Shown here: positions 13,947 to 48,339 of the stretch, piece after piece
Layout: each line of letters begins with the position of its first letter
How positions within the stretch are numbered: the first letter of the stretch is position 1
From: a bacterium
Lineage (GTDB): Bacteria > Patescibacteriota > Patescibacteriia > UBA10025
Assembly (NCBI GenBank): GCA_021815445.1
Contig: JAKAGM010000001.1
Location: 299,527-363,526 of the forward strand
DNA length: 64,000 nucleotides
Reading direction: 5' to 3'
Program-made: the position numbers and the translations under genes
Notes under the pieces: model-generated
Database searches by the model: none
What the model saw: the letters and a program-made list of their open reading frames with translations, nothing else
Told to the model about the DNA's origin: nothing

Positions 13947-13947
13947 G

Positions 13948-15370: not shown

Positions 15371-15460
15371 GAACAGTATTGCCTATTGGCTAATAATACT
15401 CCGCAAATATCACAAAGTTTTTGTATTATACAACAAGACTGGCCTTTTTACAAGCGATTG

Positions 15461-15489
15461 ATTGACTATTGCATTTATTTTTGCTATAA
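15461..15489 (+). promoter_or_regulatory. Sigma-70-like promoter for pilB (TTGACT-17 nt-TATAAT)
   Basis: ttgact at 15461-15466, 17-nt spacer, tataat at 15484-15489, 18 nt upstream of the pilB ATG. In a 137-nt divergent intergenic region. Confidence 0.5.
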
Positions 15490-15507
15490 TATATTGGTAA
15501 AAATCGT

Positions 15508-17247: not shown

Positions 17248-17255
17248 ACGTCGTT

Positions 17256-18470: not shown

Positions 18471-18511
18471 CAGCGGATTATTCACCGACAGTCTGTAATA
18501 TTATTTCTCCA

Positions 18512-27682: not shown

Positions 27683-28423
27683 TCAGGAGGAAGATGATTT
27701 GTTTTTTGCCCACTTTGCCGCCAAAACCTGCGCTTCGAGAAGGGAGTCAAAAGATTCACCGCCGTCTCCCCACCACCCCTTGAGCACCTGATAGGTCATC
27801 ACCCCTTTTTGAATGTAGTAGTTGTTGACATCGGTAATTTCCAGCTCCCCTCGGTCAGAAGGTTTGAGGGTCTTAATGACATTGAACACATTTTTATCGT
27901 ACATATACACCCCAACCACCGCCAGATTGGTCGGCGGATTCTTGGGTTTCTCAATAATACGGGTTATTCGTTCATTTGTAATCTCCGCGACTCCGTACGA
28001 TTGAGGTTTTTTTACCTCCTTGAGAAATATTTTTGCGCCCGCTTTTTGCTTCTCAAACTCGTGAGCGGCAGCCGAGATGTCATCTTCTAGAATATTATCA
28101 CCGAGCACGACAACAATCTTCTGGTTATCAGCGAAGTCTTCCGCCAGCCCAAGAGCCTGCGCTATTCCACCGGCTCCTTCCTGAAAAGTATAGTGGATCT
28201 CATGCAGTCCGAACTCTTTGCCATCACCAAGCAGCCGGACAAAGTCCCCCGGGTTGCCGCCGCCCATGACCAGGAGGATATCTTTAATCCCTGCACGGGC
28301 AAGGGTCTCCAAAGGATAAAAAATCATCGGCTTATTGTACACGGGGAGCAAATGTTTGTTGGTTACCCGTGTAAGCGGGCGGAGACGGGTTGCATTGCCT
28401 CCGGCGAGTATGATGCCTTTCAT
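27683..28423 (-). CDS. rmlA: Glucose-1-phosphate thymidylyltransferase, short form (RmlA-like sugar nucleotidyltransferase)
   Basis: 246 aa. MKGIILAGGNATRLRPLTRVTNKHLLPVYNKPMIFYPLETL is the RmlA G-loop signature. Last gene of the rml operon. Confidence 0.85.
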   Translation of the reverse strand: MKGIILAGGNATRLRPLTRVTNKHLLPVYNKPMIFYPLETLARAGIKDILLVMGGGNPGDFVRLLGDGKEFGLHEIHYTFQEGAGGIAQALGLAEDFADNQKIVVVLGDNILEDDISAAAHEFEKQKAGAKIFLKEVKKPQSYGVAEITNERITRIIEKPKNPPTNLAVVGVYMYDKNVFNVIKTLKPSDRGELEITDVNNYYIQKGVMTYQVLKGWWGDGGESFDSLLEAQVLAAKWAKNKSSSS

Positions 28424-29268
28424 AAGGTTGGTTTAGTTGATAGATAATCCCTGAGCGCGTCCTGCCATTTTTGAAGTTTTGGGAGTTTGGTATTAATCAG
28501 CATTGAATACCGGGGACGTTGTGCGGGGCGTGGAAATGTGCCTGCAGGCACTGGAATCAGTGTACCACTCCATCCAATTTGGGCAAATATTTCCTTTGCG
28601 AAACCGTACCAAGTGCAACCACCAGCATTGGTGACATGGTATATCCCCCACGGGTTGTTTCCATCAACAATTTCCCGTGTCCGTCGAGCAAGATCGGATG
28701 CATAAGTTGGACAACTGAGCTCCTCGTCAATGACAGTAAGGGTTGATTTTTCATGCGAGAGCTTGAGCATTTTATCCACGAAGCTTTCCTTAGTCTCTTG
28801 GCTGGAACCAGGAGAACCAAAAAGACGAGATAGTCTTATCAGGTAATATTTTGTGCAACACCGTTGGAGCTCCTGCTCTCCAAGTGCCTTTGACCTGGCG
28901 TACGCGCTTATTGGAGACTGAGGAGCGTCTTCTGCATACCCTTCTTTTTTTTGACCATCAAATATGTAATCAGTGGAATAGTGGACCAAAATTGCCCCAA
29001 TCTCCTGAGCAACAGAGGCAAGGTATCCCACCGCATAACCGTTTACCCTATCTGCGGTTTCCGAGTCAGTTTCGGCCGCGTCAACATTATTATATGCGGC
29101 AGCATTGATGATAATTTCTGGGTGCAGGCTGGCAATTTTATTGAACGTGTCTTCCTTCTCCGTAATGTCAATTTCAGCCCTATCCCATAACGAAAGCTCA
29201 GAATCTGAAAATGTCCGGGCGAGCTCCTGCCCAAGCATTCCTCTGCTGCCTATGATCAGCGCCTTCAT
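28420..29268 (-). CDS. rmlD: dTDP-4-dehydrorhamnose reductase RmlD
   Basis: 282 aa. MKALIIGSRGMLGQEL Rossmann start and YxxxK context typical of RmlD. 4-nt overlap with rmlA. Confidence 0.85.
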   Translation of the reverse strand: MKALIIGSRGMLGQELARTFSDSELSLWDRAEIDITEKEDTFNKIASLHPEIIINAAAYNNVDAAETDSETADRVNGYAVGYLASVAQEIGAILVHYSTDYIFDGQKKEGYAEDAPQSPISAYARSKALGEQELQRCCTKYYLIRLSRLFGSPGSSQETKESFVDKMLKLSHEKSTLTVIDEELSCPTYASDLARRTREIVDGNNPWGIYHVTNAGGCTWYGFAKEIFAQIGWSGTLIPVPAGTFPRPAQRPRYSMLINTKLPKLQKWQDALRDYLSTKPTL

Positions 29269-29272
29269 ATTG

Positions 29273-30271
29273 TTATCGTTCGATGTATTGCCTGGTGTAG
29301 TATTCCTGGAACTTTTTGCTTTTGAGCCTTTTCCACCATGCAGGATTGTCTTTGTACCATTGAATCGTTTTTGTTATCCCCCGTTCAAAAGTTGTTTTCG
29401 GCTTCCAACCGAGATGTCTCAAACGGTCGGAGTTTATCGAATAGCGAAGATCATGGCCCGGCCTGTCTTTCACATATTCTATGGAACGCTCGTCTTTTCC
29501 AAGCTCATGAAGAATGAGGCGCGTCAATTCGATGTTTGTTATCCCCTCACCAGTCCCTATATTGTAGACTTCGCCCAGGGCGCCTTTGTGAAGGATGAGA
29601 TCAACCGCCCGGCAATGATCTTCTGTGTAAATCCACTCACGTTGGTTCAAACCTTTGCCGTAGAGCGGAACCTTTTTGCCTTCAAGAAGATTGGTGACAA
29701 AAAGAGGAATAACTTTCTCAGGATACTGGTTAGGTCCATAAAAATTAACGCTATGAGTCACAATGACCGGGGTGCCGTAGGTCCTGATAAAAGCCCGGCA
29801 GAGCATGTCACCGCCGGCCTTCGACGCTGAATACGGGCTGTTGGGCAGGAAGGGGCTTTCTTCGGTAAACTCCCCCTTTTCAATACTGCCGAACACTTCA
29901 TCCGTCGATATTTGAACCATCCTAGGAATTTTGTATTTCTCAACTGCTTCAAGGAGCGTGAGAGTGCCTATAACGTCGGTAACCGCAAAATCCCTCGCCT
30001 CCATAATTGAGCGGTCCACGTGAGTTTCAGCCGCGTAGTTTATAATAGCATCAACGCCTCGTGCAACATCACCGACGCATTTCGCATCCGCAATATCGCC
30101 GCGCATAAAACCATATCGGGGATTTTGTTCTACATCTCTGAGATTTTCAGGGTTTCCCGCGTACGTCAGTTTATCAAGGTTCACCACCTCATAGTCCTCA
30201 TACTTCTCGAGGATATAGCGTATAAAGTTGGATCCCATGAACCCGGCGCCGCCGGTAACAAGTATTCGCAT
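29273..30271 (-). CDS. rmlB: dTDP-glucose 4,6-dehydratase RmlB
   Basis: 332 aa. MRILVTGGAGFMGSNFIRYIL...AAETHVDRSI...YSASKA is the extended-SDR RmlB pattern. Confidence 0.9.
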   Translation of the reverse strand: MRILVTGGAGFMGSNFIRYILEKYEDYEVVNLDKLTYAGNPENLRDVEQNPRYGFMRGDIADAKCVGDVARGVDAIINYAAETHVDRSIMEARDFAVTDVIGTLTLLEAVEKYKIPRMVQISTDEVFGSIEKGEFTEESPFLPNSPYSASKAGGDMLCRAFIRTYGTPVIVTHSVNFYGPNQYPEKVIPLFVTNLLEGKKVPLYGKGLNQREWIYTEDHCRAVDLILHKGALGEVYNIGTGEGITNIELTRLILHELGKDERSIEYVKDRPGHDLRYSINSDRLRHLGWKPKTTFERGITKTIQWYKDNPAWWKRLKSKKFQEYYTRQYIER

Positions 30272-30280
30272 AAGGTTAAC

Positions 30281-31558
<1,278 letters not shown>

Positions 31559-32074
31559 TTAGTATTCTTTTAACCAATCAAAACCAATCCGAGGATCATC
31601 GTGCGGAATGCGCTGTTCATCAGGCTGCTTGGGATTGTAGGGTTCTGTCGTATGATAAAAAAGGAGTACAGGATCGTCGCTCAGCACTTTATACCCATGT
31701 GCAACGCCCGTAGGTATGACCACGAGCTTATAGTCATTCTCGCCAGCCATAATGACTTGTGTTACGCCATATGTTCGGGATTGCTCACGGAGATCATAAA
31801 GCACAATCATGGCTTTTCCCGTTGCGGCAAACCATAGATCATCCTGACGTTTATGCCAGTGAAACGCTTTGACTGTCCCCTTGTGGGCTACGGTAAATGT
31901 CGTCTGGCCGAATTGGCGGAGAAGTTTTTCATCCGCCCGTAAGACTTCCATGAGGAACCCAGGATTAGATGACACTTCACCATCCTCAACAATATCAGGG
32001 AAAACACGAAGTTTTTTTATGACAACGCCATTGATCATACGATTCCTAAATCCTCTTCTCATTATACCTTCCAT
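31559..32074 (-). CDS. rmlC: dTDP-4-dehydrorhamnose 3,5-epimerase-like cupin (RmlC)
   Basis: 171 aa. FHWHKRQDDLWFAATGKAMIVLYDLR ... GVAHGY resembles the RmlC RGLHFQ...DLR and HGF motifs. Operon position with rmlBDA. Confidence 0.72.
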   Translation of the reverse strand: MEGIMRRGFRNRMINGVVIKKLRVFPDIVEDGEVSSNPGFLMEVLRADEKLLRQFGQTTFTVAHKGTVKAFHWHKRQDDLWFAATGKAMIVLYDLREQSRTYGVTQVIMAGENDYKLVVIPTGVAHGYKVLSDDPVLLFYHTTEPYNPKQPDEQRIPHDDPRIGFDWLKEY

Positions 32075-32492
32075 TTAATAAAGTCAAGGAAAAAAAGACA
32101 ATAAGCACGGTGACTATAGCTAACAATACAGAGAAATGCCCAACTGTGCGAGTTTGCCGGTATACAATGCCAGCTGAAGTGAGCGCCAAAATTGATCCAA
32201 TGCAGTATTCCTTGATGCCCGGTTTCTGGAATGTATATTGAGCCTCTTCGTTATGCACAAAAACACTAATTACTCCACTCACTGCAGCTATAGCGAGTAT
32301 GGCGTTAATATTAAAATAATTCGAGACGAAACTTGCACTCATGCTCTCGAGAAGGTACAAGCAAAGATACGTCACCAGGGAAACTTTGAATAGCTCAACT
32401 ATAACTAGCAAGTAAAAATGTGTCCAGAACCCCGCCTTTTTATCCTTGAGAAACATAACCCCTCTCACTTTCTTAATTGCCGGGTGAGCCAA
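32046..32492 (-). CDS. Small polytopic membrane protein, paralog B (GtrA/ArnE-ArnF-like candidate)
   Basis: 148 aa, ~4 hydrophobic helices. FKVSLVTYLCLYLLESMSASFVSNYFNINAILAIAAVSGVIS aligns with FKISLLTYLLFYVIENLYPGFISDYFNTNILLAITALSGTAS of the ORF at 36125-36544. Confidence 0.5.
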   Translation of the reverse strand: MAHPAIKKVRGVMFLKDKKAGFWTHFYLLVIVELFKVSLVTYLCLYLLESMSASFVSNYFNINAILAIAAVSGVISVFVHNEEAQYTFQKPGIKEYCIGSILALTSAGIVYRQTRTVGHFSVLLAIVTVLIVFFSLTLLNGRYNEKRI

Positions 32493-34231
32493 GAAGACAA
32501 TTTCGGGAAAAAGTTTTTGATCGTAATAGGATCTTTGTGGAAAGTAATTGTCAGTTCTTTTATTTTCATTGTCCGGTTATGTTCAGGCAAACCAGGAAAG
32601 TCGATAATGAAATGGGCAAGAATATCTTTTCCTTTATCTAAATAAAGGTACTGGGGTTCAATTGTCGCATCAGCGACTAGCCAATCCCCCTCAGTACGTG
32701 GCTGAGGATAATCGGCAATTATATAGTCATAATCGTCTATATGCTCAACGCTATCCACTTGGGCGACTGAGGCGTAATCTTGATTAAAGATCTGGCTTTT
32801 ATCCAAAGCGAAGAACCCGTCGCCCTGGATATAAACGTCATTGCCCGGCGATACTATTGCCGTTACCCCGGTGAGATTATTGATCTGAGCCGGCGAATTA
32901 ATCGCTGTCAATCTAAGGTCAAGACGACCGACTTTAAGCGTTTGAAGGCTTTCTGGATGCGATGTTTGCGCGCTGATTTTTGTGCTAGTGGTATAGACAG
33001 TAGTCGGCGTCAATACCTTTTCACCGAGTATATCTTTATACGCCTTGCTGTCAGTGAGGTAGATATTTCCCTTAAATACAATAAGATGCTGGGCAGTTGA
33101 AATATTTTTTATGAAAATGTCGTCAGGAGCGTTAATTTTTATTTTGTAAACGCCTTCGGGTAAATTTTCTCGAAAAACCTTCAAGGATCTCTCCTGGGTA
33201 ACAATGCTGCTTGCCTGCGTATCTCCGTCATCAGGCAATTTCTCTTCACCTACTGCTACGCCGCCTGAATCTTCGATAGACACAGAAAAAACGTCAGGAC
33301 CATCATGCCTGTTGCTATCCTGTATATTGAAAAGAAAGTTGAGATTTTCATTCTTTCCGATGTAGGTATCTATCTCGTGCGCCCCGCGAATACTTTTATT
33401 AATAATCGTTTCCTGTCCGCTCGGTTGGTAGCCTGGTAAATGTATGTATTTTGCGACGTTGTAATTATACTCCGCGATTTTGGATATAGCCGGTATGTTA
33501 GAAGTAAACTCTTCTATGGTGGAGTATAACGGCTTGCTTCGAATGGTGGGCACACTTTCCTCTGTGATTTTTTCGAGCGTATCCTGATACCTCGCCTCGA
33601 CAATTTGCTGCTCAGTAAGCATCGCCTGCATACGCTCAGAGTTGAGGTTGACACTGGGGCCGTAGTTTTTTTCTATATTTACCAAAGTTTGTGTTCTTGC
33701 ATCATCAAGCTTCTTTTTCTGGACAGGAAATGCTTTTTTCTTTTCCAAAGTTTCTCGGTAACGAGCATTGTCTTTTTGCCAGAGAACGATATCGCCCTGA
33801 CTTATTTTGTCCCAATAGTCGGGCAGATTATCAAGTGTGGCATTTTGAAAGGCCATATTTTCCAAATGATAGGCACCACTTGGTAATTTGGCGCCAAGGC
33901 GAGTTACCGGCTGGCCGTTTGGATTTTGGTAGGTTAAAATGACGTTTGCACTTTTGAAAGGGCGAGGTACTTTCACATCAAAGTAGGTCGGGTTTGTCGT
34001 AATTAGCTGAAAATAATCGATGTTGCCGGAAATATTTTTTGTCCCGATTAATTTGTCCGGTTCTTTTGACGCAAAATTCCTGACGAGAAGCGAGGGTTGA
34101 TTTGGATGGTAAACAATCTTTAAGGTGCCGCCAAGTACCAGGTGTTTATCTACTAACCAAACAAACAGAACTATCGGCGCAAGCCAAAGTATGATTTTTA
34201 CTGCTCGTAATGGTATATGGTGTTCGTCCAT
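32465..34231 (-). CDS. Large N-terminally anchored extracytoplasmic protein, unknown function
   Basis: 588 aa. TM at residues ~10-28 (IILWLAPIVLFVWLV), remainder hydrophilic. Lies between the GT-C gene and small-membrane paralog B. Confidence 0.5.
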   Translation of the reverse strand: MDEHHIPLRAVKIILWLAPIVLFVWLVDKHLVLGGTLKIVYHPNQPSLLVRNFASKEPDKLIGTKNISGNIDYFQLITTNPTYFDVKVPRPFKSANVILTYQNPNGQPVTRLGAKLPSGAYHLENMAFQNATLDNLPDYWDKISQGDIVLWQKDNARYRETLEKKKAFPVQKKKLDDARTQTLVNIEKNYGPSVNLNSERMQAMLTEQQIVEARYQDTLEKITEESVPTIRSKPLYSTIEEFTSNIPAISKIAEYNYNVAKYIHLPGYQPSGQETIINKSIRGAHEIDTYIGKNENLNFLFNIQDSNRHDGPDVFSVSIEDSGGVAVGEEKLPDDGDTQASSIVTQERSLKVFRENLPEGVYKIKINAPDDIFIKNISTAQHLIVFKGNIYLTDSKAYKDILGEKVLTPTTVYTTSTKISAQTSHPESLQTLKVGRLDLRLTAINSPAQINNLTGVTAIVSPGNDVYIQGDGFFALDKSQIFNQDYASVAQVDSVEHIDDYDYIIADYPQPRTEGDWLVADATIEPQYLYLDKGKDILAHFIIDFPGLPEHNRTMKIKELTITFHKDPITIKNFFPKLSSWLTRQLRK

Positions 34232-34282
34232 AAAATCACATGGTACTTCACACTATGCAATATTTCTGCAGATAAATCAATA

Positions 34283-35974
34283 TCAACGCCCGATGCGGTA
34301 TAAGATCTCGCCGTTTTTACTTAAACTTACAACCGGACTTGCGGAGAACCCTCTCGAGGTGATGTCGTCCAATGCGCTGTTGCCAACAAATGGGTCAAAA
34401 TAGAAATATACCGTTGTTTGTCTCAGCAATGCATCGAGGAATCTATCGCGTGTTGTGATATCTGACGGAAGATTCACAATCACTTTACGCTGGGGGAAAA
34501 AGAGCTTATCGGCCGTACCAGAAATGATAACCGAAGCCGATTCTGTCCGGCTCTCGACGATTTTTTCTCTGTTATTATTTTGCTTCATATTTTCCTTTAG
34601 CGGGACGAGTCCGTATGAAGCGTCAAAGAGAACAGTCATGGCCGCACCGAGTAAAAATATTGCCACCACGGACACAACGACCATGCGTCCCAAGACGCCA
34701 TTCTTGAAAAAGCTCGCGAGTTTTTGGAGACCAAATATAAAAAATGGGATCCCAAAAATATATATTGGCAACCAATATCGTAGATACGAAGATCCCAGAA
34801 CAATCACCGATTGATCTGAGAACTCAGTAAAGATATATGAACCATAATAAATAATCAGCCATAGGGATATAACAAAGAATACCAGCGCATAGATTACTTG
34901 CGGTCGCGGTAGCGGCGGTGCGGGAGGGTGAGAATCAACATGCGGGAAAAATTTCACAATGAACGGTAGAGAAACTCTTCGCACTAGTAAAAGTATTCCG
35001 ATAATAAGGAGGAGCGAGAAAATCGGTGAAAAAAGAAACAGGTACTGGTATGCCGCCACGCTCATACGATGAAAATTCAGACCAAACGGAAGAATCAACT
35101 GCCATAAACGTTCAAAATCAGAATGCGAAACGACATTGGTGACTGAAACCGATATATCCGAGACACTCGGCAAAGGAGCGTATCCAAAAGAATCCCATGA
35201 ACCATAGAGTTGGTGATTATAAAAGAAGATTGGGGCAAAAACCAGGAGACTTGCACCTAAAAAAATGAGGACATGAAACAATCGAATCCGTGCTTTATGC
35301 AGAATTCCCATCAACAGGAGCATTATGACGACCCACGGGGCCTCGGATGTTCTCACTGCAAGAGCGAGCCCGAAAAAAATTCCTGAAAGAAAATACAAAA
35401 GCGTACTGCCACCTTTTGATCTTTTGGAATGGGAGCCGTGTAACAAAAAATAGAGGCCAACTATGATCAGAGAGACGAACAGGCTGTTGTGAAACATTCC
35501 TCGGGATGCGTAATACCAAAAAGGCGGAAGAATAAAAAGCATCAAAGACGAATAAAACGCGATAGTCTTTGAGAAAATCTGCTTGAGCAGCAAATAGAAA
35601 AAAACCACACTGACTGCTGCCATAAACGGCGTGAAGAGAGTCATGGACGCAATTCCCGTAAATTTTGCTATGGCGCCGTACAACATTGGAAGTCCCAGGA
35701 AACTGACTGGAACAGTATACCCGTTAACCAAGGTCATGCTTCGCGGTATAACCAAAGCCCCGGCTAACGTATTGAGCGGCTCATGGTATCGAAGCGAGTT
35801 ATGCTGCGCGAATAATCCCCCAAAAAAATAATTCGCGGTCTCGTCGGGAGATGCAAAACGACTTGGCATTCGATAAGAAAACCATAAATAGATGAAAAAA
35901 AAGACAATACAAAATCCAACTATGATGAGTAGCTTTTTATCAACTCGGGTATTCGTTAAACTCTGCATCTGCAT
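34283..35974 (-). CDS. GT-C fold glycosyltransferase (ArnT/PMT-like, lipid-linked sugar donor)
   Basis: 563 aa with ~11-13 TM segments. First extracytoplasmic loop carries FASPDETANYFFG, a DE-type motif like the ArnT/PMT (GT83/GT39) loop-1 motif. C-terminal soluble domain. Confidence 0.6.
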   Translation of the reverse strand: MQMQSLTNTRVDKKLLIIVGFCIVFFFIYLWFSYRMPSRFASPDETANYFFGGLFAQHNSLRYHEPLNTLAGALVIPRSMTLVNGYTVPVSFLGLPMLYGAIAKFTGIASMTLFTPFMAAVSVVFFYLLLKQIFSKTIAFYSSLMLFILPPFWYYASRGMFHNSLFVSLIIVGLYFLLHGSHSKRSKGGSTLLYFLSGIFFGLALAVRTSEAPWVVIMLLLMGILHKARIRLFHVLIFLGASLLVFAPIFFYNHQLYGSWDSFGYAPLPSVSDISVSVTNVVSHSDFERLWQLILPFGLNFHRMSVAAYQYLFLFSPIFSLLLIIGILLLVRRVSLPFIVKFFPHVDSHPPAPPLPRPQVIYALVFFVISLWLIIYYGSYIFTEFSDQSVIVLGSSYLRYWLPIYIFGIPFFIFGLQKLASFFKNGVLGRMVVVSVVAIFLLGAAMTVLFDASYGLVPLKENMKQNNNREKIVESRTESASVIISGTADKLFFPQRKVIVNLPSDITTRDRFLDALLRQTTVYFYFDPFVGNSALDDITSRGFSASPVVSLSKNGEILYRIGR

Positions 35975-36124
35975 TGTGTTAGTATATCATCTTTCGAGCC
36001 TTTCCAACACCTGGCGTAAGAGACGCAGAAATAAACTATAAGCACCCGTGCAAACGCCGCACTGGCATTCTTTAACAAAATCAAAATGAGCCGGGTATAC
36101 TACGGTACCAAAAAAACTTTATTC

Positions 36125-36544
36125 CTAAGACTCCTCGAGTCCCTCGTCTTCCTCAAATAAGATAAATAAAGAAATCAGAACTATGGTGGCACCGACCAAC
36201 CCAGAGATCACATATCTCAACCAGCCGGACATTTGCAAATTATAGAAGGTGATCCCAGTCGCAAGCGTGGTAACTAAAAAAACGATACCTAGATCCTTCC
36301 ATAAAGCAAGCTTTCGTTGTCCCGTTAAATTTTCGGACCATAAAGCAGAGGCTGTCCCGCTTAAGGCGGTTATTGCAAGTAATATGTTGGTATTAAAATA
36401 ATCCGAAATAAATCCCGGGTAAAGGTTTTCAATGACATAGAACAGTAAATAAGTAAGCAGTGAAATTTTAAAAATTTCGTTCAATATTGTGCGCGCAAAT
36501 CCCAAAATATCAACATTTGTGGAGGTTTGTGGTTTTAATATCAT
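36125..36544 (-). CDS. Small polytopic membrane protein, paralog A (GtrA/ArnE-ArnF-like candidate)
   Basis: 139 aa, ~4 TM, acidic C-terminal tail. Clear paralog of 32046-32492. First gene of the minus-strand glycan operon. Confidence 0.5.
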   Translation of the reverse strand: MILKPQTSTNVDILGFARTILNEIFKISLLTYLLFYVIENLYPGFISDYFNTNILLAITALSGTASALWSENLTGQRKLALWKDLGIVFLVTTLATGITFYNLQMSGWLRYVISGLVGATIVLISLFILFEEDEGLEES

Positions 36545-36778
36545 ACTTGCCTTTATTGTCTCAAATATCGATTCGATCCATCTAAGCTTTTATAAAATTC
36601 ATATTTCAGCAATTTATTTTCCGCTAGAATACTTATTGTAATTTGAGCCTTCTGGCTTCGACCCGGATGAAGCGCCTTTTGCACATACGTTACTTAGTAT
36701 ATCAGCCAACTTCCAACATTACAAAAAGTGGTAACCCGGCCCCTTTTTATTGATTTCAAAAAATCGCCTCGGCGACTA

Positions 36779-36939: not shown

Positions 36940-37782
36940 ATGTCCAAGGAGGCTCCATTGAACACACCGTACCCTTATCCAGTATTAACTGTCGGGAACG
37001 ATCCCGAAGGATTCTTTCGTGAGCTCCGCGTTCACGGCATTCATCGTTGGGAACAGCTGACTGAACCGCTTCTGGTGCCGGAATACCGGGAGCAGCGGAG
37101 CCCTCTGACACCTGCTCAAGAAAGAGCGACAACGATGTTTGTTCCCCGGATCGAGGTCATCGACTTCCGGGAGCCCGGCGCTAACGAGGCGTTCACCGGG
37201 GTCAGGTTGAACACCAAGCCCTGGGCGTCGTGTTTCACTCTTCTCCCTCAGGACCCCCATGAGCTTGATGGCTACGACACTCATCGTGAATGGGTTGACC
37301 AGCTGACACCCGATGAGATCGGCGAGGCATTGATTCCCCTGACCTTCGAATTCAAGCACGGTGTGGGCGATCTCTACCCCGGCGCTGAGCACGATGCATG
37401 CACGATAGTGACCCCGTCAGGAGTTCCGAACAAGGACGAATGGCCGCGGGGCTTTGACAGCCTCGAAGACTGCGCACGACGCGAGTTCAGGAACGAGTTC
37501 GGACTCGACCTGGAAAACGTAACGCCCCTCGGTCCTCGGGTCTACGGATTCAGTGTGAGTCCGAGGCGTTCCAATGAAACGGTTCAGCCCTTCTGGGTCG
37601 AGCCGAAACTCCCGCTCGAGTTTCATCCGCGGAAATCGGGCAAGAGTGAACAGCTCTTGCCGTTCCTGATCACGGTGAACGACTATCGGGAGCTCGTTCG
37701 CCGGAAACTGCTCATTGAGATTTACAGCGCAGGGATCGTGTACATCGCCCTCGAGCACCTTGGGCGACTGCAGATCGTCTGA
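36940..37782 (+). CDS. Hypothetical protein in GC-rich insert (possible degenerate Nudix-like box)
   Basis: 280 aa. Visibly higher GC than its flanks. REFRNEFGL resembles, but does not match, the Nudix REUXEEXGU core. A perfect aaggagg lies just after the annotated ATG, with a TTG 5 nt further on, so the true start may be slightly downstream. Confidence 0.45.
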   Translation: MSKEAPLNTPYPYPVLTVGNDPEGFFRELRVHGIHRWEQLTEPLLVPEYREQRSPLTPAQERATTMFVPRIEVIDFREPGANEAFTGVRLNTKPWASCFTLLPQDPHELDGYDTHREWVDQLTPDEIGEALIPLTFEFKHGVGDLYPGAEHDACTIVTPSGVPNKDEWPRGFDSLEDCARREFRNEFGLDLENVTPLGPRVYGFSVSPRRSNETVQPFWVEPKLPLEFHPRKSGKSEQLLPFLITVNDYRELVRRKLLIEIYSAGIVYIALEHLGRLQIV

Positions 37783-37890: not shown

Positions 37891-38955
37891 TTACAACAGC
37901 GAGAGAATAAACCGTGCAGACCTTTCCGCATTTTGCCCATCGAGGCGAAAATTGGCCACCTGAGCTGCCGTGAGACCCAGATCCCCTTTTAGCGCCAGTT
38001 TGAGCTGGGAACACAGTTCCTCATAGCCTGCAGCCATTGTCGAGCATCCGAGGGAAACAACCGGCGGGACATCCATAGAGTTCCCGGTCGACGCCCTGAA
38101 TAGAGAGAGCCCGGCATCAGGATAGAGAACGGAGATGGTCTGCTTCCTGATGGTGGCCGACTCTACGAGAATCGTCGAGTACATCGAGAGTATGACGTCG
38201 CTCGCTGCCAGAAGCTGCTGGGTGGAAAAGCCCGACCCGTCGACAAGAATTCCGCCCGAAAAACATTTGATGGCCTCTTGCCATATTGGCAGTTCATCAG
38301 GGGCATTGTTGCCCATTGCCGGGTGCGCCCGGGGGATCAGATATACCGAGTTGTCGCCGAGCTCATTGAGCGCTCGCACAATCTCGGCAAGCACCGATCC
38401 GCTCCCTTGCCACTGTCCGCCGTACAGTACGATGCGTCCTTGTGGCGGGATGCCTAGCTGCAATCGAACCTTTGACGCTTCTGCCGCAACATCGTACCCC
38501 GCGTACTTGTCGAGTGCGGGGAACCCCGTTGCCCGAATATTCTCGGAAGGAAAGCCAGGCCAGGCCTCCTCAACCAATCTGGCGCCGATGCCATCATTCA
38601 CGATGATGTAATCAGGCCTATAGTCAGGTGCCCGCCAAGCATCATACAGGTACCCTGCCCAGTAGTCCTGGAGCGCAACCACTTGAGTTGATTTGCGAAG
38701 ATAAAGGATAAGGTCCCTCCCGACTCCGCCTTGTGAGCACATGCTGGTTACCAGTGTTTTTGGATAATCCATGGCAAGCAGCGTTTCGACGGATTGAGCT
38801 TGGACAAATACTTCGCCCGATCCGGCTAATATTTCCACAGCCTTACCGTTCGCAAAAAGCTCGACCTGCGCGCCATGAGACCTTATGGCTTTCACCACAG
38901 GAACTATCCCGGCAGTTCCCCCCGTGTCTTTGCACACACACCAAATGTCCGCCAA
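37891..38955 (-). CDS. GT-B fold glycosyltransferase-like protein (GT1/GT28-like) in GC-rich insert
   Basis: 354 aa. N-terminal GGTAG G-loop. C-domain IVLYGGQWQGSGS ... ASDVILSMYSTILVESATIRKQTISVLYPDAG resembles the GT1/MurG-type C-terminal nucleotide-sugar binding region. Confidence 0.5.
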   Translation of the reverse strand: MADIWCVCKDTGGTAGIVPVVKAIRSHGAQVELFANGKAVEILAGSGEVFVQAQSVETLLAMDYPKTLVTSMCSQGGVGRDLILYLRKSTQVVALQDYWAGYLYDAWRAPDYRPDYIIVNDGIGARLVEEAWPGFPSENIRATGFPALDKYAGYDVAAEASKVRLQLGIPPQGRIVLYGGQWQGSGSVLAEIVRALNELGDNSVYLIPRAHPAMGNNAPDELPIWQEAIKCFSGGILVDGSGFSTQQLLAASDVILSMYSTILVESATIRKQTISVLYPDAGLSLFRASTGNSMDVPPVVSLGCSTMAAGYEELCSQLKLALKGDLGLTAAQVANFRLDGQNAERSARFILSLL

Positions 38956-39203: not shown

Positions 39204-39572
39204 ATGGTAAAAAAATGGCTTATTTACTGTTTAGCTGGAGTTTGCGTACTCGTGCTTATTGCGCTCGTCCTGACCATTTGGTTGCCTGTCTTCGTCGCAT
39301 TTAGGTCGGTTTTCGGCTTCGTCTGTCTTTTTTTCTTACCAGGGTACATCTGGAGTTACGTTTTTTGGCGAGGGGGCGAAATAGACGGTACTGAACGCTG
39401 GATACTTGGTATTATGCTCTCTGTTGTTTCTGTCCCTCTGCTGGTTTTTTTTCTCAATAAGATCGGAATAAAAATAAACATCGTTAATGTATTACTGGAA
39501 AGTTTTGTACTTATGCTCTCCTCGTTAATTATCATTTACTACAAAAAAATTAAATCTAAACCATCGCTATGA
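39204..39572 (+). CDS. Small 4-TM membrane protein, hypothetical
   Basis: 122 aa, four hydrophobic helices. 4-nt overlap with the downstream epimerase gene. Tatgat -10-like element at 39183-39188. Confidence 0.45.
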   Translation: MVKKWLIYCLAGVCVLVLIALVLTIWLPVFVAFRSVFGFVCLFFLPGYIWSYVFWRGGEIDGTERWILGIMLSVVSVPLLVFFLNKIGIKINIVNVLLESFVLMLSSLIIIYYKKIKSKPSL

Positions 39573-40566: not shown

Positions 40567-41397
40567 ATGGCCTATCAAGAAGTAACTACGATCAAACCAA
40601 AAAAGGGTTGGGTGGGGGTTAATGTAAAAGAACTATGGCGCTATCGAGAGCTTTTTTTTATTTTTGTATGGCGTGATATTAAAATACGATACAAGCAGAC
40701 GGCAATAGGCGTACTCTGGGCTATCCTGCAGCCATTTTTGTTAATGGTAGTGTTTTCAATCTTTTTTGGCTCATTCGCCAAAATGCCGTCAAACGGGGTC
40801 CCCTACCCTATTTTCGTTTTTTCAGGTCTGCTTTTTTGGAATTATTTTTCTGTTTCACTGACGAATGCAAGCGACTCATTAGTCAGTAATGAGAATATTT
40901 TAAAAAAAATATATTTCCCCCGTTTAATCCTTCCCCTGTCGCCCACGATGACACCTCTCGTTGATTTTGCAATCGCCTTCATTGTGCTCATCGGAATGCT
41001 TTTTTATTATCATTTTACGCCCACGCTCATCGGCATCGTCATATTGCCGCTGCTCCTTTTTACGTCCTTTCTCTCCGCGTCGGGTTTGGGAATGTTTTTA
41101 GCCGCCATAAACGTCAGATACCGCGACATAAGATATGCCCTCCCCTTTTTTATTCAAAGCCTTTTGTTTGTCACTCCGGTAATTTATCCGACAAGCATTG
41201 TTTCTTCGCAATACCAATGGATCCTCAAATTGAACCCAATGACCGGAATCATCGAGGCGGCTAGGGCCGGCATTGTTGGCGGCAAACAAATTGATTTCAC
41301 GTTACTGGCAATTTCTGGGATTATCGCCGCAGCGATTTTTTTGTTTGGAATATTTTATTTTAGGAAAACTGAGCGGATATTCGCTGATGTCGCCTAA
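40567..41397 (+). CDS. wzm: ABC-2 type polysaccharide export permease (Wzm/TagG-like)
   Basis: 276 aa, 6 TM. ABC-2 family pattern (IKIRYKQTAIGVLWAILQPFL). Precedes the ATPase. Confidence 0.85.
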   Translation: MAYQEVTTIKPKKGWVGVNVKELWRYRELFFIFVWRDIKIRYKQTAIGVLWAILQPFLLMVVFSIFFGSFAKMPSNGVPYPIFVFSGLLFWNYFSVSLTNASDSLVSNENILKKIYFPRLILPLSPTMTPLVDFAIAFIVLIGMLFYYHFTPTLIGIVILPLLLFTSFLSASGLGMFLAAINVRYRDIRYALPFFIQSLLFVTPVIYPTSIVSSQYQWILKLNPMTGIIEAARAGIVGGKQIDFTLLAISGIIAAAIFLFGIFYFRKTERIFADVA

Positions 41398-42676
41398 TAC
41401 TATGCAGGACGAAATCATAAAAGTAAACAACATTTCTAAATCCTACACCATTACGCATCGCGAATCTTACGAAACCATACGCGATAAAGTAACTGAACTT
41501 GCGAAAAAGCCGTTTCAAATGTTTGCTGGCCGCACACATACTGAAAAAGAAAAGTTCTGGGCACTGAGAGATGTCCAATTTTCAGTCAAACAGGGCGAGC
41601 GCTTGGGAATCATAGGAAGAAATGGCGCCGGCAAAAGCACACTCTTAAAGATTTTGTCCCAGATTACGTATCCGACCGCCGGCGATGTAATGTTGCGGGG
41701 ACGGGTAGCTAGTCTGCTCGAGGTCGGTACTGGCTTCCACCCCGAGCTGACCGGCAGAGAAAATATATTCCTGAATGGAGCCATATTAGGGATGAAACAA
41801 TCGGAAATAAGAAAAAAATTTGATGAAATAGTCGCGTTTGCTGAGATTGAACAATTTCTTGATACACCCGTTAAACGATATTCATCAGGGATGTACGTGA
41901 GGCTCGCTTTTGCGGTTGCCGCACATTTGGAGCCTGAAATACTAATCATTGACGAAGTCTTAGCCGTCGGCGACACGCAATTCCAGAAAAAATGCCTAGG
42001 TAAAATGGAGGATGTGGCAAAAGGAGGCAGGACAATACTTTTTGTCAGCCACAACATGGGTTCGATACATAAATTGTGCGATTCTTGCATATGGCTTGAC
42101 CGGGGGAAAGTTGTCGCGGCCGGTGATCCGCAAAATGTCATCATGCAGTATTTGGACTACCAAAGTAAGGGACGCGCAATTTTTACGCAGGAACATCAAT
42201 CAAAAAAAAAGATGAACTTAAGAAAAGTATTCCTGTTGGACGGAAGAGCTCAAATCGGCCGTTTAGTCAACTTCGATGACGATGTTTTGATAGCTATTGA
42301 GTATGAGATTAATCAAGAAGTGAATAACTGCCTCGTCTGGTTTACGCTCTCATCAGGCGACGGTATTGAGATTCTCTGCAGTACGGACTATGATCTCCAC
42401 CCCGAGCTCAAAGGCCCAAGATCCAAAGGTTATTACCGTACAACTGCTGTGATTCCAAAAAAGGTCCTCAGTCCAGGCAGCTATAATATCTTAGTCGGAA
42501 TTAATTCGAATAATTTACCCAGTGAAACTTTTGATCGGATTGAGACTATTTCATTTGATGTGGTAGACAACGGCAGTTCACCTAAAGCCATGTTTGGGGA
42601 AATGTCGCGAAGTGGATTTTTACAGCCTTTTTTGGACTGGCAAACGCAAAAAGTTTCTGAAAAAACGGATTCTTAA
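41387..42676 (+). CDS. wzt: ABC transporter ATPase Wzt/TagH-like with C-terminal glycan-binding extension
   Basis: Walker A GRNGAGKST, signature YSSGMYVRLAF, Walker B ILIIDE. ~170-aa C-terminal beta-rich extension, as in O-antigen-binding Wzt. Start chosen at the in-frame ATG 41387 (the ORF-track start 41273 overlaps wzm extensively). Confidence 0.85.
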   Translation: MSPNTMQDEIIKVNNISKSYTITHRESYETIRDKVTELAKKPFQMFAGRTHTEKEKFWALRDVQFSVKQGERLGIIGRNGAGKSTLLKILSQITYPTAGDVMLRGRVASLLEVGTGFHPELTGRENIFLNGAILGMKQSEIRKKFDEIVAFAEIEQFLDTPVKRYSSGMYVRLAFAVAAHLEPEILIIDEVLAVGDTQFQKKCLGKMEDVAKGGRTILFVSHNMGSIHKLCDSCIWLDRGKVVAAGDPQNVIMQYLDYQSKGRAIFTQEHQSKKKMNLRKVFLLDGRAQIGRLVNFDDDVLIAIEYEINQEVNNCLVWFTLSSGDGIEILCSTDYDLHPELKGPRSKGYYRTTAVIPKKVLSPGSYNILVGINSNNLPSETFDRIETISFDVVDNGSSPKAMFGEMSRSGFLQPFLDWQTQKVSEKTDS

Positions 42677-42710
42677 TAATACTACTATCGGCTCAAAACT
42701 AAAAAACACT

Positions 42711-43427
42711 ATGATACTGAATAAGAAAATACTTACAATCATACCTGCTCGCGGAGGATCTAAGCGTTTGCCGGGAAAAAATATCAAGCTTTTGGCCGGC
42801 AAACCGATGATTGCATATGCGATCGAGGCTGCCAGAAAATCGAAATATACTGACAATATAATTGTTACGACGGATGACCAAAAAATTGCTGATATCGCCG
42901 CGAAATATGGAGCTGATGTCCCGTTTATACGGCCGACCGAGTTGGCCACTGACGAAGCCAAGAGCATCGACGTTATCATCCACGCCGTAGATTTCTTCGA
43001 GACACAGAAGGGCTTTTTGATAGATTTGATAATCTTGATTCAACCGACCTCGCCGCTCGTTATTTCGACGGATGTTGACGCGGTCATTGAAAAAATACTC
43101 CAAGCAGAGACAAAAAGTTGTGCAACTGTGTTTAAGGTTACACAGAGACCCGAGTGGATGTACGTAATCCACCAGGGTGAATCGAAGCCCTTTCTGACTG
43201 CGCATAACACTGACCTGCCGAGTCAGGAACTGAAAGAACTCTATTGTTTAAATGGCGCCGTCTATGCCATGCGTCGTGATACGGTCATGAAAGACAGGTT
43301 GGTAATAGACAATAAAAGCTTCTCAACTGTCATTATACCCAGGGAAAGATCGGTGGACGTGGACGAGCTGTATGACTTTGAGCTAGCTGAAGCTATTCTA
43401 AAAAATCATGCCAACAAGACAAGATAA
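42711..43427 (+). CDS. CMP-nonulosonic acid synthetase (acylneuraminate cytidylyltransferase family; NeuA/LegF-like)
   Basis: MILNKKILTIIPARGGSKRLPGKNIKLLAGKPMIAYAIEAA is the CMP-NeuAc/CMP-Kdo synthetase family N-terminus. Start taken at 42711 rather than ORF-track 42594. Confidence 0.85.
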   Translation: MILNKKILTIIPARGGSKRLPGKNIKLLAGKPMIAYAIEAARKSKYTDNIIVTTDDQKIADIAAKYGADVPFIRPTELATDEAKSIDVIIHAVDFFETQKGFLIDLIILIQPTSPLVISTDVDAVIEKILQAETKSCATVFKVTQRPEWMYVIHQGESKPFLTAHNTDLPSQELKELYCLNGAVYAMRRDTVMKDRLVIDNKSFSTVIIPRERSVDVDELYDFELAEAILKNHANKTR

Positions 43428-44481
43428 CCTAAACATTCAGATCGGTGATAAACGGATCAGCTATCATGATGAGGTTTTTGTTATTGCCGAGGCAGGGGTA
43501 AATCATAACGGACGTCTTAATCTGGCATTGAAGCTTGTCGACGCCGCTGCGCAAGCCGGTGCTCATGCGGTAAAATTTCAGACTTTCAAAGCCCACCAGG
43601 TTGTGGTAAAAAAAACGCCGATGGCTGAGTATCAAAAAAAGAACATTGCACGTAAACAAAGCCAACTGGCTATGTTAAAAAAAGTTGAATTACAAGAAGC
43701 ATTCTACGACAAAATAATTAAGCACTGCAAAAGAAGGAAAATTATTTTTCTTTCCACACCGCACGGCGGATTTGAGAGCATTGATTTTCTTCATTCCCTC
43801 GACGTGCCTGCGTATAAATTTGGCTCAGGAGATTTGAATAACACGCCTGTGCTCCAATACGCTGCGCGATTCGGAAAACCCATGATACTCGGTACCGGAA
43901 TGTCCACACTGCAAGAGGTAAAAAACGCAATCGCGGTCATCAGAAAAACCGGAAACAATAAAATAATCGTATTGCATGCAACGACCAATTACCCATGCCC
44001 TCCCCAAGAAGTCAACTTACAATCAATGGTAACAATGATGCACGCTGTACGTTGCCTCGTGGGCTATTCTGACCATACGTTAGGGATTGAGACGTCATCA
44101 GCTGCTGTCGCACTAAAGGCATGCATGATCGAGAAACACTTCACGTTAAACAAAAAATTGCCCGGTCCGGATCATAAATGTTCAGCTGAACCGAAGGAGC
44201 TTCAAACTTTAATAGACCGCATACGATACATTCACACGATATTGGGTTCACCAGTTAAGCAGCCGAACCCTAGCGAACTGAGAATGTTAAAGACTGTTCG
44301 AAAAAGCATTGTCACGTTATCTGAAATAAAAAAAGATGAGTTTTTTACACCAAAAAACTTAGGGATTAAGAGGCCTGGGACGGGTCTGGATCCAAAATAT
44401 TATTACAGGATCATCGGCAAAAAAGCATTACAGAACATTCGCCCAGATGTTCTGCTGACAAAAAAACATTATGCAGAGTAA
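43408..44481 (+). CDS. neuB: Nonulosonic acid synthase (NeuB/LegI family, C-terminal SAF domain)
   Basis: 357 aa. VIAEAGVNHNG...AGAHAVKFQTFKA is the NeuB TIM-barrel signature. SAF-like C-terminus. Confidence 0.9.
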   Translation: MPTRQDNLNIQIGDKRISYHDEVFVIAEAGVNHNGRLNLALKLVDAAAQAGAHAVKFQTFKAHQVVVKKTPMAEYQKKNIARKQSQLAMLKKVELQEAFYDKIIKHCKRRKIIFLSTPHGGFESIDFLHSLDVPAYKFGSGDLNNTPVLQYAARFGKPMILGTGMSTLQEVKNAIAVIRKTGNNKIIVLHATTNYPCPPQEVNLQSMVTMMHAVRCLVGYSDHTLGIETSSAAVALKACMIEKHFTLNKKLPGPDHKCSAEPKELQTLIDRIRYIHTILGSPVKQPNPSELRMLKTVRKSIVTLSEIKKDEFFTPKNLGIKRPGTGLDPKYYYRIIGKKALQNIRPDVLLTKKHYAE

Positions 44482-45628
44482 AAAGAAAAAAGTAGCATAC
44501 ATTACCGGTAATCGCGCCGATTTCGGATTAATGACACCGGTATTGCTGGCGATGAGGAAAAGCAAAAAGTTGTCACTTACGGTATATGCAACCGGCATGC
44601 ATCTCATGCCGGAATTTGGGCGCACTCTGAAAGAAGTAAAAAAGATATTTCCTGACGTGAAAGTGATCAGCGCCATTTTCAAATCAGACGGCAATAAAGG
44701 GATGGCAAGTTTTTCCTCAGCATACATTAAACGTCTGGTGGAGATGTTTACCAAAGACCGACCGGACTTTGTTATTACGTTGGGTGATCGAGTTGAGATG
44801 CTCTGTACGGCGCTTACCTGTCTTTACATGCATATCCCGAGCGGTCAGCTGCACGGCGGCGAAAAGACTTCCACAGTTGATGAAATTGCGCGCCATACAA
44901 TTACCAAACTTTCCAATCTGCATTTCCCGGCAACGCGTGTATCAGCCCAGAGAATCGAAAAAATGGGCGAAGAAAAGTGGCGCATACACATAGTTGGCGC
45001 CCCTGCGCTTGATATGATATTACACGGCAATTTGCCGAGCAAAAGGGAGGTTTACCGGTTTCTCGATATCAGGCCGTCGCTTCCATATATCCTAGTTACC
45101 CAGCATCCCGTTAGCCAAGAATGGACTGAATCCGGGAGACAAATGAGAGAAACGCTGCGCGCCGTCAAACACTTCGGCATACCTGTTGTAGTTACATACC
45201 CCAACGCAGATGCCGGTGGAAGAGTAATGATAAGGGAAATTAATAAAGAGGAGGGAAACTCATTATTCAGGATCAAGCCGAGCATCCCTTATGCATATTT
45301 CCTGGCAATTGAAAAATATGCGGCAGTCTGGGTTGGGAACAGCAGCGGGGCAATGATTGAGTCATCCTCTTTCCATACTCCGGTCGTCAATGTGGGCGAC
45401 CGTCAAAAAGGCAGAGAACGAGGTTTGAATGTTATTGACAGCCCTCACATACATACACGAATAGAAAAAGCCATCCGGAAATCACTGTCTGACAAAAAAT
45501 ATCGTAAACGACTTCAAAAGATTAAGAACCCGTGGGGTGACGGAAAAACTGGGATGAGGGTCGTAAAAATTCTAGAAAAAACTGATTTCAATACACAATT
45601 GCTCAACAAGCATTTAACTTATGACTAA
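44471..45628 (+). CDS. neuC: Hydrolysing UDP/GDP-N-acetylhexosamine 2-epimerase (NeuC/LegG-like)
   Basis: 385 aa. VAYITGNRADFGLMTPVL ... HGGE ... HPVSQEW ... VGNSSG matches the NeuC-type hydrolysing 2-epimerase pattern. Confidence 0.85.
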   Translation: MQSKKKKVAYITGNRADFGLMTPVLLAMRKSKKLSLTVYATGMHLMPEFGRTLKEVKKIFPDVKVISAIFKSDGNKGMASFSSAYIKRLVEMFTKDRPDFVITLGDRVEMLCTALTCLYMHIPSGQLHGGEKTSTVDEIARHTITKLSNLHFPATRVSAQRIEKMGEEKWRIHIVGAPALDMILHGNLPSKREVYRFLDIRPSLPYILVTQHPVSQEWTESGRQMRETLRAVKHFGIPVVVTYPNADAGGRVMIREINKEEGNSLFRIKPSIPYAYFLAIEKYAAVWVGNSSGAMIESSSFHTPVVNVGDRQKGRERGLNVIDSPHIHTRIEKAIRKSLSDKKYRKRLQKIKNPWGDGKTGMRVVKILEKTDFNTQLLNKHLTYD

Positions 45629-46226
45629 AAAAGTAATCATCGTAGGTGCCGGAGAAAATGGATATGTTATAGTGAACATATTGAAAAGAAAGTACAGTAT
45701 CGCCGGTTTTCTTGATGATAGAAAGAGAGGAAAACACATTCTTGGTAAAATTAATCAGTTCTCTAAATATAAAAAAAGTCATCTTTTTTTTGTAAATATT
45801 GGGAATAACAAGGTGAGAAAGAATATTTATCTGCTGATGAAGTCCGCCGGAGCAAAATTCGTTAATGCGATTCATGTCTTGTCTTTTGTAGAAAAAACTG
45901 CTAAAATTGGTGAAAATGTTTTTATCGGAGCTATGACCTACATAAATGTAAACGCCTCCATTGGCGACAATTCTTTCATTAATAACGGCTGCATTATCGA
46001 GCACGATAATGAGATTTCCGCGCACACACATGTTGCACCTGGCGTGATAACGGGAGGACGTGTCGTCATTGGTACGGGTTCGTTTATAGGACTTGGCAGC
46101 CGCATTAATGACCACACTAAGATAGGAAATAATGTAACCATCGGATCTGGTTCAGTCGTCATCGGCCCGATTGCGAGCAATACCACTGCGGTGGGTATTC
46201 CCGCTCATATAATTAAAAAATTATGA
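45621..46226 (+). CDS. Left-handed beta-helix sugar N-acetyltransferase (NeuD/PglD/LegH-like)
   Basis: 201 aa. N-terminal Rossmann-like IIVGAGENG and C-terminal hexapeptide repeats (IGDNSFINNGCIIEHDN..., IGTGSFIGLGSRIN...). Confidence 0.8.
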   Translation: MTKKVIIVGAGENGYVIVNILKRKYSIAGFLDDRKRGKHILGKINQFSKYKKSHLFFVNIGNNKVRKNIYLLMKSAGAKFVNAIHVLSFVEKTAKIGENVFIGAMTYINVNASIGDNSFINNGCIIEHDNEISAHTHVAPGVITGGRVVIGTGSFIGLGSRINDHTKIGNNVTIGSGSVVIGPIASNTTAVGIPAHIIKKL

Positions 46227-48323: not shown

Positions 48324-48339
48324 ATTTAATTATCGGTAA

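Follow-up and report, generated by a model that had tools for sequence, protein, structure and literature searches.

A GT-C-fold glycosyltransferase encoded with two accessory protein families in Patescibacteria: a putative multi-subunit enzyme of rhamnose-containing surface glycans

What might a polytopic glycosyltransferase, a 588-aa (amino acid) anchored protein, and two small membrane proteins do together on one strand of a Patescibacteria genome? The question is raised by positions 32046–36544 of a 64,000-nucleotide stretch, called the window below (positions 299,527 to 363,526 of contig JAKAGM010000001.1, assembly GCA_021815445.1). A preliminary description of this DNA saw here two paralogous mini-proteins bracketing a GT-C-like glycosyltransferase and an exported protein, and proposed that the minis form a heterodimeric flippase for lipid-linked sugars. 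Our analysis leads to a different answer. The glycosyltransferase, the 588-aa protein (named X here), and one mini-protein form a conserved module, GT-C → X → mini, and, judging from sequences and predicted structures, the chances are slightly better than even that this module is a multi-subunit extracytoplasmic glycosyltransferase acting late in the assembly of a rhamnose-containing surface glycan. All four open reading frames (ORFs) claimed earlier are present on the minus strand:

36125–36544, minus strand: miniA, an extra mini-protein paralog of 139 aa with four hydrophobic segments and a canonical PGF..YFN loop
34283–35974, minus strand: a GT-C-fold glycosyltransferase (PMT_2/ArnT-like) of 563 aa, the putative catalytic subunit
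32465–34231, minus strand: X, a 588-aa putative accessory protein with an N-terminal transmembrane (TM) anchor and a beta-rich ectodomain
32046–32456, minus strand: miniB, the cassette's own mini, 136 aa from the ATG at 32456

The ORF of miniB extends to a TTG at 32492 (32046–32492, 148 aa), and the database entry starts at Met13, which is the ATG at 32456. The miniB gene overlaps both of its neighbours, the gene encoding X at its end and the rmlC-like gene at its start.

Profiles of the three families were run against the ORFs of 80 GT-C loci (78 non-redundant), and the loci were compared over ±8 kb around each of them. The gene encoding X is located directly downstream of the GT-C gene, on the same strand, in 57 of the 78 non-redundant loci (cassette loci below), and a mini gene comes next in most of them; the genes of the trio usually overlap or lie a few bases apart. 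A metagenome scan centred on the minis, which used a 10-member subset of the mini alignment, revealed X followed by a mini in 16 of 16 loci, with GT-C before X wherever the contig reaches. The order GT-C → X → one mini is kept, with tight coupling, in about 75 related loci, and miniB is the positional ortholog of their single mini. GT-C relatives that lack X and the mini are longer (about 575–640 aa), and the gene downstream of them is another one, of GT4-like type. Relatives of the GT-C protein were found in at least 572 species-representative genomes, essentially all of them from Patescibacteria. Many GenBank records with the cassette (L005, L013, L014, L016, and others) are titled 'uncultured Gammaproteobacteria bacterium' (binchicken, SRP co-assemblies); on cassettes of the Patescibacteria type, these labels are probably wrong. 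No description of the module was found in the searchable papers on Patescibacteria GT-C enzymes, on DUF1616, or on rhamnose and S-layer glycosylation in the candidate phyla radiation (CPR). What appears to be new is that a GT-C enzyme is accompanied, in many Patescibacteria, by two accessory families of its own, neither of which is matched in Pfam or NCBIfam.

The predicted structure identifies the 563-aa protein as a GT-C-fold glycosyltransferase of the PMT_2/ArnT type. Its AlphaFold2 (AF2) model has a predicted local distance difference test (pLDDT) score of 89.6 and a predicted template modelling (pTM) score of 0.91. The top 23 fold matches in the PDB (E ≤ 1e-3) are all GT-C enzymes; ArnT is the best of them (5f15/5ezm, E ~3e-7, TM-score ~0.55, 12–13% identity), and AglB/STT3, ALG9, AftA, AftB, and DPY19 are further matches. 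Since all top folds are GT-C but the identity with ArnT is 12–13%, the protein has a GT-C fold with no close characterised member. The SPDE motif occupies residues 42–45, right after the first TM helix, in the first outside loop, and its Asp-Glu is of the catalytic type of this family. P43, D44, E45, and N48 are invariant in 37 members of the family, so the acidic loop-1 motif, on which the preliminary description had made its assignment depend, is conserved throughout the alignment. Other invariant residues are R78, R208/E211, Y397/R399/Y400, and D489/K490.

Among these 37 members, Pfam detects PMT_2 (PF13231) in 25 (best E 1.4e-14) and STT3 in 6, while the window protein itself has no Pfam match at E ≤ 1. 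In NCBIfam, it shows only a sub-threshold match to LA_3751/LA_3752, putative Leptospira glycosyltransferases. Its homologs are Patescibacteria proteins, many of them named 'glycosyltransferase family 39'; a search of PDB sequences with the GT-C profile gave nothing useful. The GT-C-like character claimed earlier therefore stands on the model, on ArnT as the best fold, and on PMT_2 in the relatives. YfhO, which had been named for comparison beside PMT_2 and ArnT, is not among the Pfam matches of the 563-aa protein or of the 37 family members.

Protein X consists of an N-terminal TM helix (residues 5–30), which is its single TM anchor, and a beta-rich ectodomain, in agreement with its earlier description as anchored and extracytoplasmic. 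In the model (pLDDT 85), the core is a beta-sandwich of the carbohydrate-binding module (CBM) type, made of N- and C-terminal strands; a helical hairpin of about 70 residues (155–225) and further beta-sandwiches are nested in it as insertions, and a C-terminal helix stands at the end. A Foldseek search with this model returned solely CBM/lectin-type sandwiches, the best being 7zvo (E 4e-4). No member of the X family has a meaningful Pfam match, none matches NCBIfam, and the family profile found no relative among PDB sequences. A resemblance of X to BcsB or to subunits of oligosaccharyltransferase (OST) was considered and rejected, as the sole BcsB match has a probability of 0.15; it is kept as an analogy only.

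Three size classes of X can be distinguished. In short forms (176–213 aa), the match covers the first ~120 positions of the profile, to which several of them add the last ~80; the hairpin is missing from mid forms, and long forms have all parts. The TM anchor, linker, and sandwich core are common to all three, and the comparison thus indicates that the core of X is an anchor, a linker, and one sandwich, to which the longer forms add nested insertions. Residues 54–80 are modelled as disordered and are the only segment of the AF2 model with pLDDT <50; at the same time, they are one of the most conserved stretches of the family. Eleven positions are invariant within residues 52–77 (N52, F53, A54, K56, E57, G63, T64, N66, F74, Q75, and I77). 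Such a conserved yet apparently disordered segment is what would be expected for partner binding, and residues 54–80 are likely to be a partner-binding or acceptor loop.

The linkage of X with GT-C and the mini in about 75 loci makes X look like an accessory protein and not like an unrelated neighbour. The preliminary description had allowed for either a substrate or an accessory factor; the second possibility is favoured, and the first remains as a rival, which we consider unlikely. According to it, X is a dedicated substrate: the GT-C protein would be a PMT/STT3-like protein glycosyltransferase acting on the juxtamembrane segment of X, X would be a surface glycoprotein, and the mini would be its chaperone or anchor. 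The Pfam matches of the GT-C family are indeed to the protein-glycosylating families PMT_2 and STT3, and the 54–80 segment is flexible, contains Ser, Thr, and Asn as well as several invariant positions, and is close to the membrane, where a GT-C active site lies. PEGA-domain surface proteins are also encoded nearby in 10 of the 57 cassette loci. Against a substrate role, short X, with its anchor, linker, and one sandwich, resembles a minimal binding subunit and not a surface glycoprotein; the beta-sandwich matches of X are carbohydrate-binding modules; strict 1:1 gene coupling with overlapping frames is typical of stoichiometric complexes; and rhamnose-glycan genes dominate the operon.

The mini-proteins of the window are true paralogs, as had been claimed. 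BLASTP aligns miniA and miniB with 23/47 identities (E 2e-14), and their global alignment has 42 identical columns. The Smith–Waterman score is 140 versus 33 ± 5.7 in 2000 shuffles (z 18.7); with block shuffles that keep local hydrophobicity, z is still 13.1. Each of the two has four hydrophobic segments. A word-indexed homolog search with miniA returned miniA alone, and a full HMMER scan collected 659 cluster representatives of the family. The conserved core is a two-TM hairpin consisting of helix 1, the loop PGF(V/I)SxYxNLN, and helix 2; many members of 60–70 aa are this core alone, and longer forms gain two helices. Counts of positive charges (positive-inside rule) fit an N-in/C-in topology with the loop outside. 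The canonical PGF motif is present in miniA, and miniB has SASF at this place. Among the best 150 of the 659 representatives, about six tandem double-minis, about seven fusions to LytR_C, and three fusions to a DUF1616 4-TM module (P0222, P0282, and P0249) were noted.

Two-TM minis (60–90 aa) occur nearly always with short X, e.g., in L026, L030, L032, L035, L060, L066, and L075, and four-TM minis occur mostly with mid or long X. This size pairing could be explained either by co-evolution or simply by shared ancestry. The mini family is also found on contigs with archaeal-type neighbours (AFOR, TrmB), namely at 564–1430 of L085 and 3618–6837 of L086; the forms present there are a tandem double-mini and a mini::DUF1616 fusion.

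Do the minis constitute a flippase? The proposal was that they bring a polyprenyl-phosphate monosaccharide, made by a GT2 enzyme, to the GT-C protein, either as an ArnE/ArnF-like heterodimer of miniA and miniB or in the manner of GtrA. Small four-segment proteins encoded beside a PMT_2/ArnT-like GT-C enzyme speak for it, as do tandem double-minis in other organisms, which indicate that minis may work in pairs. An acidic and a basic residue, E23 and K26, are conserved within the membrane in helix 1 and may recall transporters of the SMR family, such as EmrE with its E14. Moreover, a GT-C enzyme has to be supplied with a lipid-linked donor that has been flipped, and the cassette contains no other obvious flippase. 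The family relationships, on which the proposal had itself staked its case, give it no support. Neither miniA nor miniB has a match in Pfam or NCBIfam. The 40 family members searched show no consistent family match; 46 scattered membrane-protein families were hit, and GtrA (E 0.014), EamA, and EmrE (E 0.006–0.013) were each matched by one member of the 40. A search of PDB sequences with the mini-family profile was empty. Many minis are two-TM proteins of 60–70 aa, and the fusion partners of the family are LytR_C and DUF1616 modules, not transporters. An exporter, Wzm/Wzt, is already encoded in the window, and a Wzx-like gene is present in a relative.

The bracketing pair itself is not retained outside the window. 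No second mini is present in any of the approximately 75 other loci, and the closest relative found, L095, has 61 bp in place of miniA and two further genes. A recent tandem duplication as the origin of the pair was rejected, because miniA and miniB resemble minis from other genomes as closely as they resemble one another; the neighbour-joining tree of the family is star-like and cannot date their split. Since the miniA segment is in addition absent from L095, we read miniA, on this comparison, as an old or acquired, lineage-specific extra copy and not as one half of an obligate heterodimer.

The synthase half of the flippase proposal is not supported either. The GT2 candidates at 59184–59999 and 62745–63797, suggested as makers of the lipid-linked sugar, are generic GT2 enzymes with homologs in 2/57 and 10/57 cassette loci, i.e., not co-conserved with the cassette. 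Their best matches are the chain-building GT2s chondroitin synthase, TuaG, and EpsD; there are marginal matches to dolichol-phosphate mannose (DPM) synthase (E 2.7e-5) and to ArnC (E 7.4e-5), and GtrB is not matched by either candidate. One of them has no hydrophobic segment and the other has one. Nothing tested favours a flippase role of the minis, which we consider quite improbable.

If the minis are not a flippase, the genes around the cassette offer the next indication of what the module serves. The following genes continue downstream of miniB:

31559–32074, minus strand: rmlC-like gene
30281–31537, minus strand: S-adenosylhomocysteine (AdoHcy) hydrolase gene, between rmlC and rmlB
29273–30271, minus strand: rmlB
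28420–29268, minus strand: rmlD
27683–28423, minus strand: rmlA

By their sequences, the genes of the cassette operon in 27683–32074 are together predicted to supply dTDP-L-rhamnose. This context recurs in relatives: rmlC is present in 30, rmlB in 43, rmlD in 27, and rmlA in 19 of the 57 cassette loci, all or nearly all of them downstream and on the same strand, versus 1, 5, 0, and 0 of the 21 non-cassette loci, respectively. The AdoHcy hydrolase gene lies downstream of the cassette in 17 of the 57. Its recurrence, together with methyltransferase genes nearby and a Wzt_C domain of the cap-binding type in the Wzt of the window, hints that the rhamnose glycan may be methylated.

The preliminary description placed all four genes in one operon upstream of the rml genes. 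This is supported for GT-C through rmlA, where the intergenic gaps are ≤51 nt or the genes overlap and the identities of rmlC, rmlB, rmlD, and rmlA were confirmed. It does not extend to miniA, which is separated from the GT-C gene by a gap of 150 nt containing a promoter-like element, so that a transcript shared by miniA and the cassette is a candidate only. The exact 10-mer GATATACTAA has just two copies in the window, at 35979–35988 and 36694–36703, both on the minus strand and each preceded by TTGGAA. Between the end of the first copy and the start codon of GT-C there are 4 nt, and the second is located about 150 nt upstream of miniA. Judging by these positions, GATATACTAA may be a promoter element shared by GT-C and miniA, and the GT-C transcript could be nearly leaderless.

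On the other side of the cassette, the genes are as follows:

36940–37782, plus strand: NUDIX-domain protein
37891–38955, minus strand: Glyphos_transf-like protein
39204–39572, plus strand: DUF1616-type 4-TM mini-protein of 122 aa, heading a divergent epimerase–Wzm–Wzt operon
40567–41397, plus strand: Wzm, ABC-2 permease
41273–42676, plus strand: ORF of Wzt, an ATPase with a Wzt_C glycan-binding domain

Wzm and Wzt have the sequences of an ABC-transporter-type exporter of a lipid-linked glycan, divergent from the cassette. The 122-aa protein matches PF07760 with 37.3 bits (cutoff 31.6) over profile positions 3–112 of 307, and the DUF1616 part of the fusion protein P0282 with a BLASTP E value of 8e-20. 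A DUF1616-like gene was found in 12 of the 57 cassette loci and in none of the 21 non-cassette loci; ten of the 12 copies lie immediately upstream of GT-C and are divergent from it. Because of this position in relatives and the fusions to minis elsewhere, the DUF1616-like protein is a probable fourth component, as far as gene order and domain composition tell.

When the window is compared with L095, its closest relative, one interruption can be noted. L095 has Wzt ← Wzm ← DUF1616-like, 61 bp, and then GT-C → X → mini → rmlC → AdoHcy hydrolase; where it has these 61 bp, the window carries a segment of about 3.2 kb with the Glyphos_transf-like, NUDIX, and miniA genes, and it is in this genome only that such genes stand between the cassette and the operon of DUF1616, Wzm, and Wzt. 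The flanking Wzm, RmlC, and AdoHcy hydrolase are 68–76% identical between the two loci, whereas GT-C, X, and the mini are 39–48% identical. The evolution of the module is much faster than that of the genes around it, which would be expected of glycan-specific surface machinery, and the difference suggests diversity of the surface glycan under selection.

How could such a module work? In the mechanism we propose, the GT-C protein would take, on the outer side of the membrane, a sugar or glycan linked to polyprenyl phosphate and transfer it to a rhamnose-containing surface glycan or to the final acceptor of that glycan. X would hold the acceptor or product glycan, in trans, as the CBMs of Emb proteins and AftD do in cis, and would dock to its partners through the juxtamembrane segment, residues 54–80. 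The mini would be a membrane adaptor tying X and the GT-C protein to the DUF1616-like protein and thereby possibly to the exporter; the adaptor reading rests on the natural fusions mini::DUF1616 and mini::LytR_C, on the DUF1616-like gene in 12 of the 57 cassette loci, and on its place at the head of Wzm–Wzt in L095, 61 bp from the GT-C gene.

Several observations weigh against this proposal. The sequences examined contain neither a GT-C::X nor an X::mini fusion. At 4197–7392 of L087, the gene after that of a 499-aa X-like protein encodes a mini with two LytR_C domains fused to it, and no GT-C gene is adjacent; in L086, a weak X-like gene and a mini::DUF1616 fusion come after a 531-aa enzyme with 10 TM segments that is unrelated to the Patescibacteria GT-C family. 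Judging from these two arrangements, X and the mini may assist several enzymes or do something independent of them. The existence of tandem double-minis fits minis acting in pairs, and the conserved intramembrane E23 and K26 would, by their character, also suit transport. Wzm/Wzt are adjacent in only 3 of the 57 cassette loci, so the link to the exporter may hold for close relatives only. The L087 pair adjoins a Wzx-like flippase and a pyruvyl transferase.

The L086 and L087 arrangements also belong to another explanation, in which X and the mini, perhaps together with the DUF1616-like protein, are a self-standing envelope module, e.g., for anchoring or length control of a glycopolymer, that is merely co-regulated with a nearby glycosyltransferase. 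LytR_C, to which minis are fused, occurs in cell-wall glycopolymer ligases, and the helical hairpin of the long X forms may recall chain-length regulators. We find this rather unlikely, as the contiguous order is fixed in 57/78 GT-C loci and in all 16 mini-centred ones, and the GT-C relatives without X and the mini are a distinct, longer subgroup with another downstream gene. The existence of that subgroup suggests that the GT-C enzyme of the cassette type depends on its partners, and the multi-subunit glycosyltransferase remains the reading we prefer.

The rest of the window is consistent in character with these genes: it is a glycan island with rml genes, Wzm/Wzt with Wzt_C, a nonulosonic-acid pathway, methyltransferases, and GT2 and GT4 enzymes. 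The pathway, at 42594–49885 on the plus strand, looks complete and includes a CMP-transferase, NeuB, a NeuC-like protein, a PglD-like acetyltransferase, a DegT aminotransferase, and a PseB-like dehydratase. HisF/HisH-like amidotransferase genes located within it suggest, by sequence, an acetamidino-type derivative of legionaminic or pseudaminic acid in this Patescibacterium. Between GT2 and GT4 genes, a 515-aa protein (60009–61556, minus strand) has about 10 hydrophobic segments and no Pfam or NCBIfam match, and none of the 78 related loci encodes a homolog. A polymerase, a ligase, and a second GT-C-like enzyme are all conceivable identities for it. Two adjacent paralogous proteins of about 475 aa (54802–57595, plus strand) show only sub-threshold matches to the BFO_1060 glycosyltransferase family. 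At 902–20684, there are genes for SecA, an L,D-transpeptidase with FG-GAP repeats, arginine decarboxylase, an arginase-family (agmatinase-like) enzyme, the MraY-MurD-FtsW-MurG-MurC-MurB cluster, and the type IV pilus proteins PilB and PilC, a content that is nothing unusual in a Patescibacterium with a monoderm envelope.

The ultra-small Patescibacteria make up a very large and mostly uncultivated group that seems to depend on other microbes, and the chemistry of their surface has received almost no study. A recognisable enzyme accompanied by two families that match neither Pfam nor NCBIfam offers a testable entry into their rhamnose-containing surface glycans. If the three proteins indeed form one complex, this would be a rare case of a bacterial GT-C enzyme with dedicated non-catalytic subunits and a simple system for studying what such subunits do.

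What known systems does the module resemble? The closest in fold is ArnT, which works with ArnE and ArnF in Enterobacteria (lipid A aminoarabinose): both systems have a PMT_2-type GT-C enzyme, with small membrane proteins encoded alongside. Unlike ArnE/ArnF, the minis have no similarity to SMR or EamA and occur mostly singly, no ArnC-type GT2 is conserved, an extra anchored lectin-like subunit is present, and the context is a rhamnose glycan, not lipid A. The GtrA/GtrB/GtrX and CsbB/GtcA/YfhO systems, which along with ArnT and ArnE/ArnF come nearest in logic, offer an analogy in their lipid-linked sugar, their polytopic GT-C enzyme working outside the membrane, and a 4-TM protein of about 120–140 aa nearby. 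They differ in that no match to GtrA (PF04138) or YfhO and no co-conserved GtrB-like synthase is present here, the mini core has just two TM helices, and X has no counterpart there.

The DUF1616 proteins of archaea (PF07760) are about 300 aa long and have an extracellular part, whereas the 122-aa protein of the window corresponds to their N-terminal 4-TM membrane module only. Among them is HVO_2173, which in Haloferax is N-glycosylated in an AglB-dependent manner (PMC8241124).

Mycobacterial EmbA/B/C and AftA/AftB/AftD, likewise GT-C enzymes, assemble glycans of the cell wall from polyprenyl-phosphate sugars and hold the acceptor by means of CBMs. Their CBMs are in the same polypeptide, while in the module a second, anchored protein carries the CBM-like domain; the sequence identity is 12–13%.

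In eukaryotic OST, STT3 is associated with single-pass beta-sandwich subunits of the Ost1/Wbp1 type and with mini-subunits of the Ost4/Ost5/DAD1 type, and PIG-M/PIG-X is the mannosyltransferase of glycosylphosphatidylinositol (GPI) synthesis. Neither the PDB profile searches nor Foldseek detected homology of X or the mini to OST or PIG subunits; the best fold matches of the GT-C model do include STT3 chains from OST complexes. The likeness would thus be one of architecture: a GT-C catalytic subunit, a single-pass beta-sandwich subunit, and tiny membrane subunits. A broader proposal, which we put forward only tentatively, is that Patescibacteria and some DPANN-like archaea have a GT-C holoenzyme, composed of the GT-C protein, a lectin-like subunit, a mini with 2–4 TM helices, and a DUF1616 adaptor to Wzm/Wzt, that carries out the final transfer of a rhamnose-rich glycan to the cell surface and is an architectural counterpart of eukaryotic OST and GPI mannosyltransferase. 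If this analogy is correct, an architecture of that kind would exist in prokaryotes whose envelope biology is almost uncharted.

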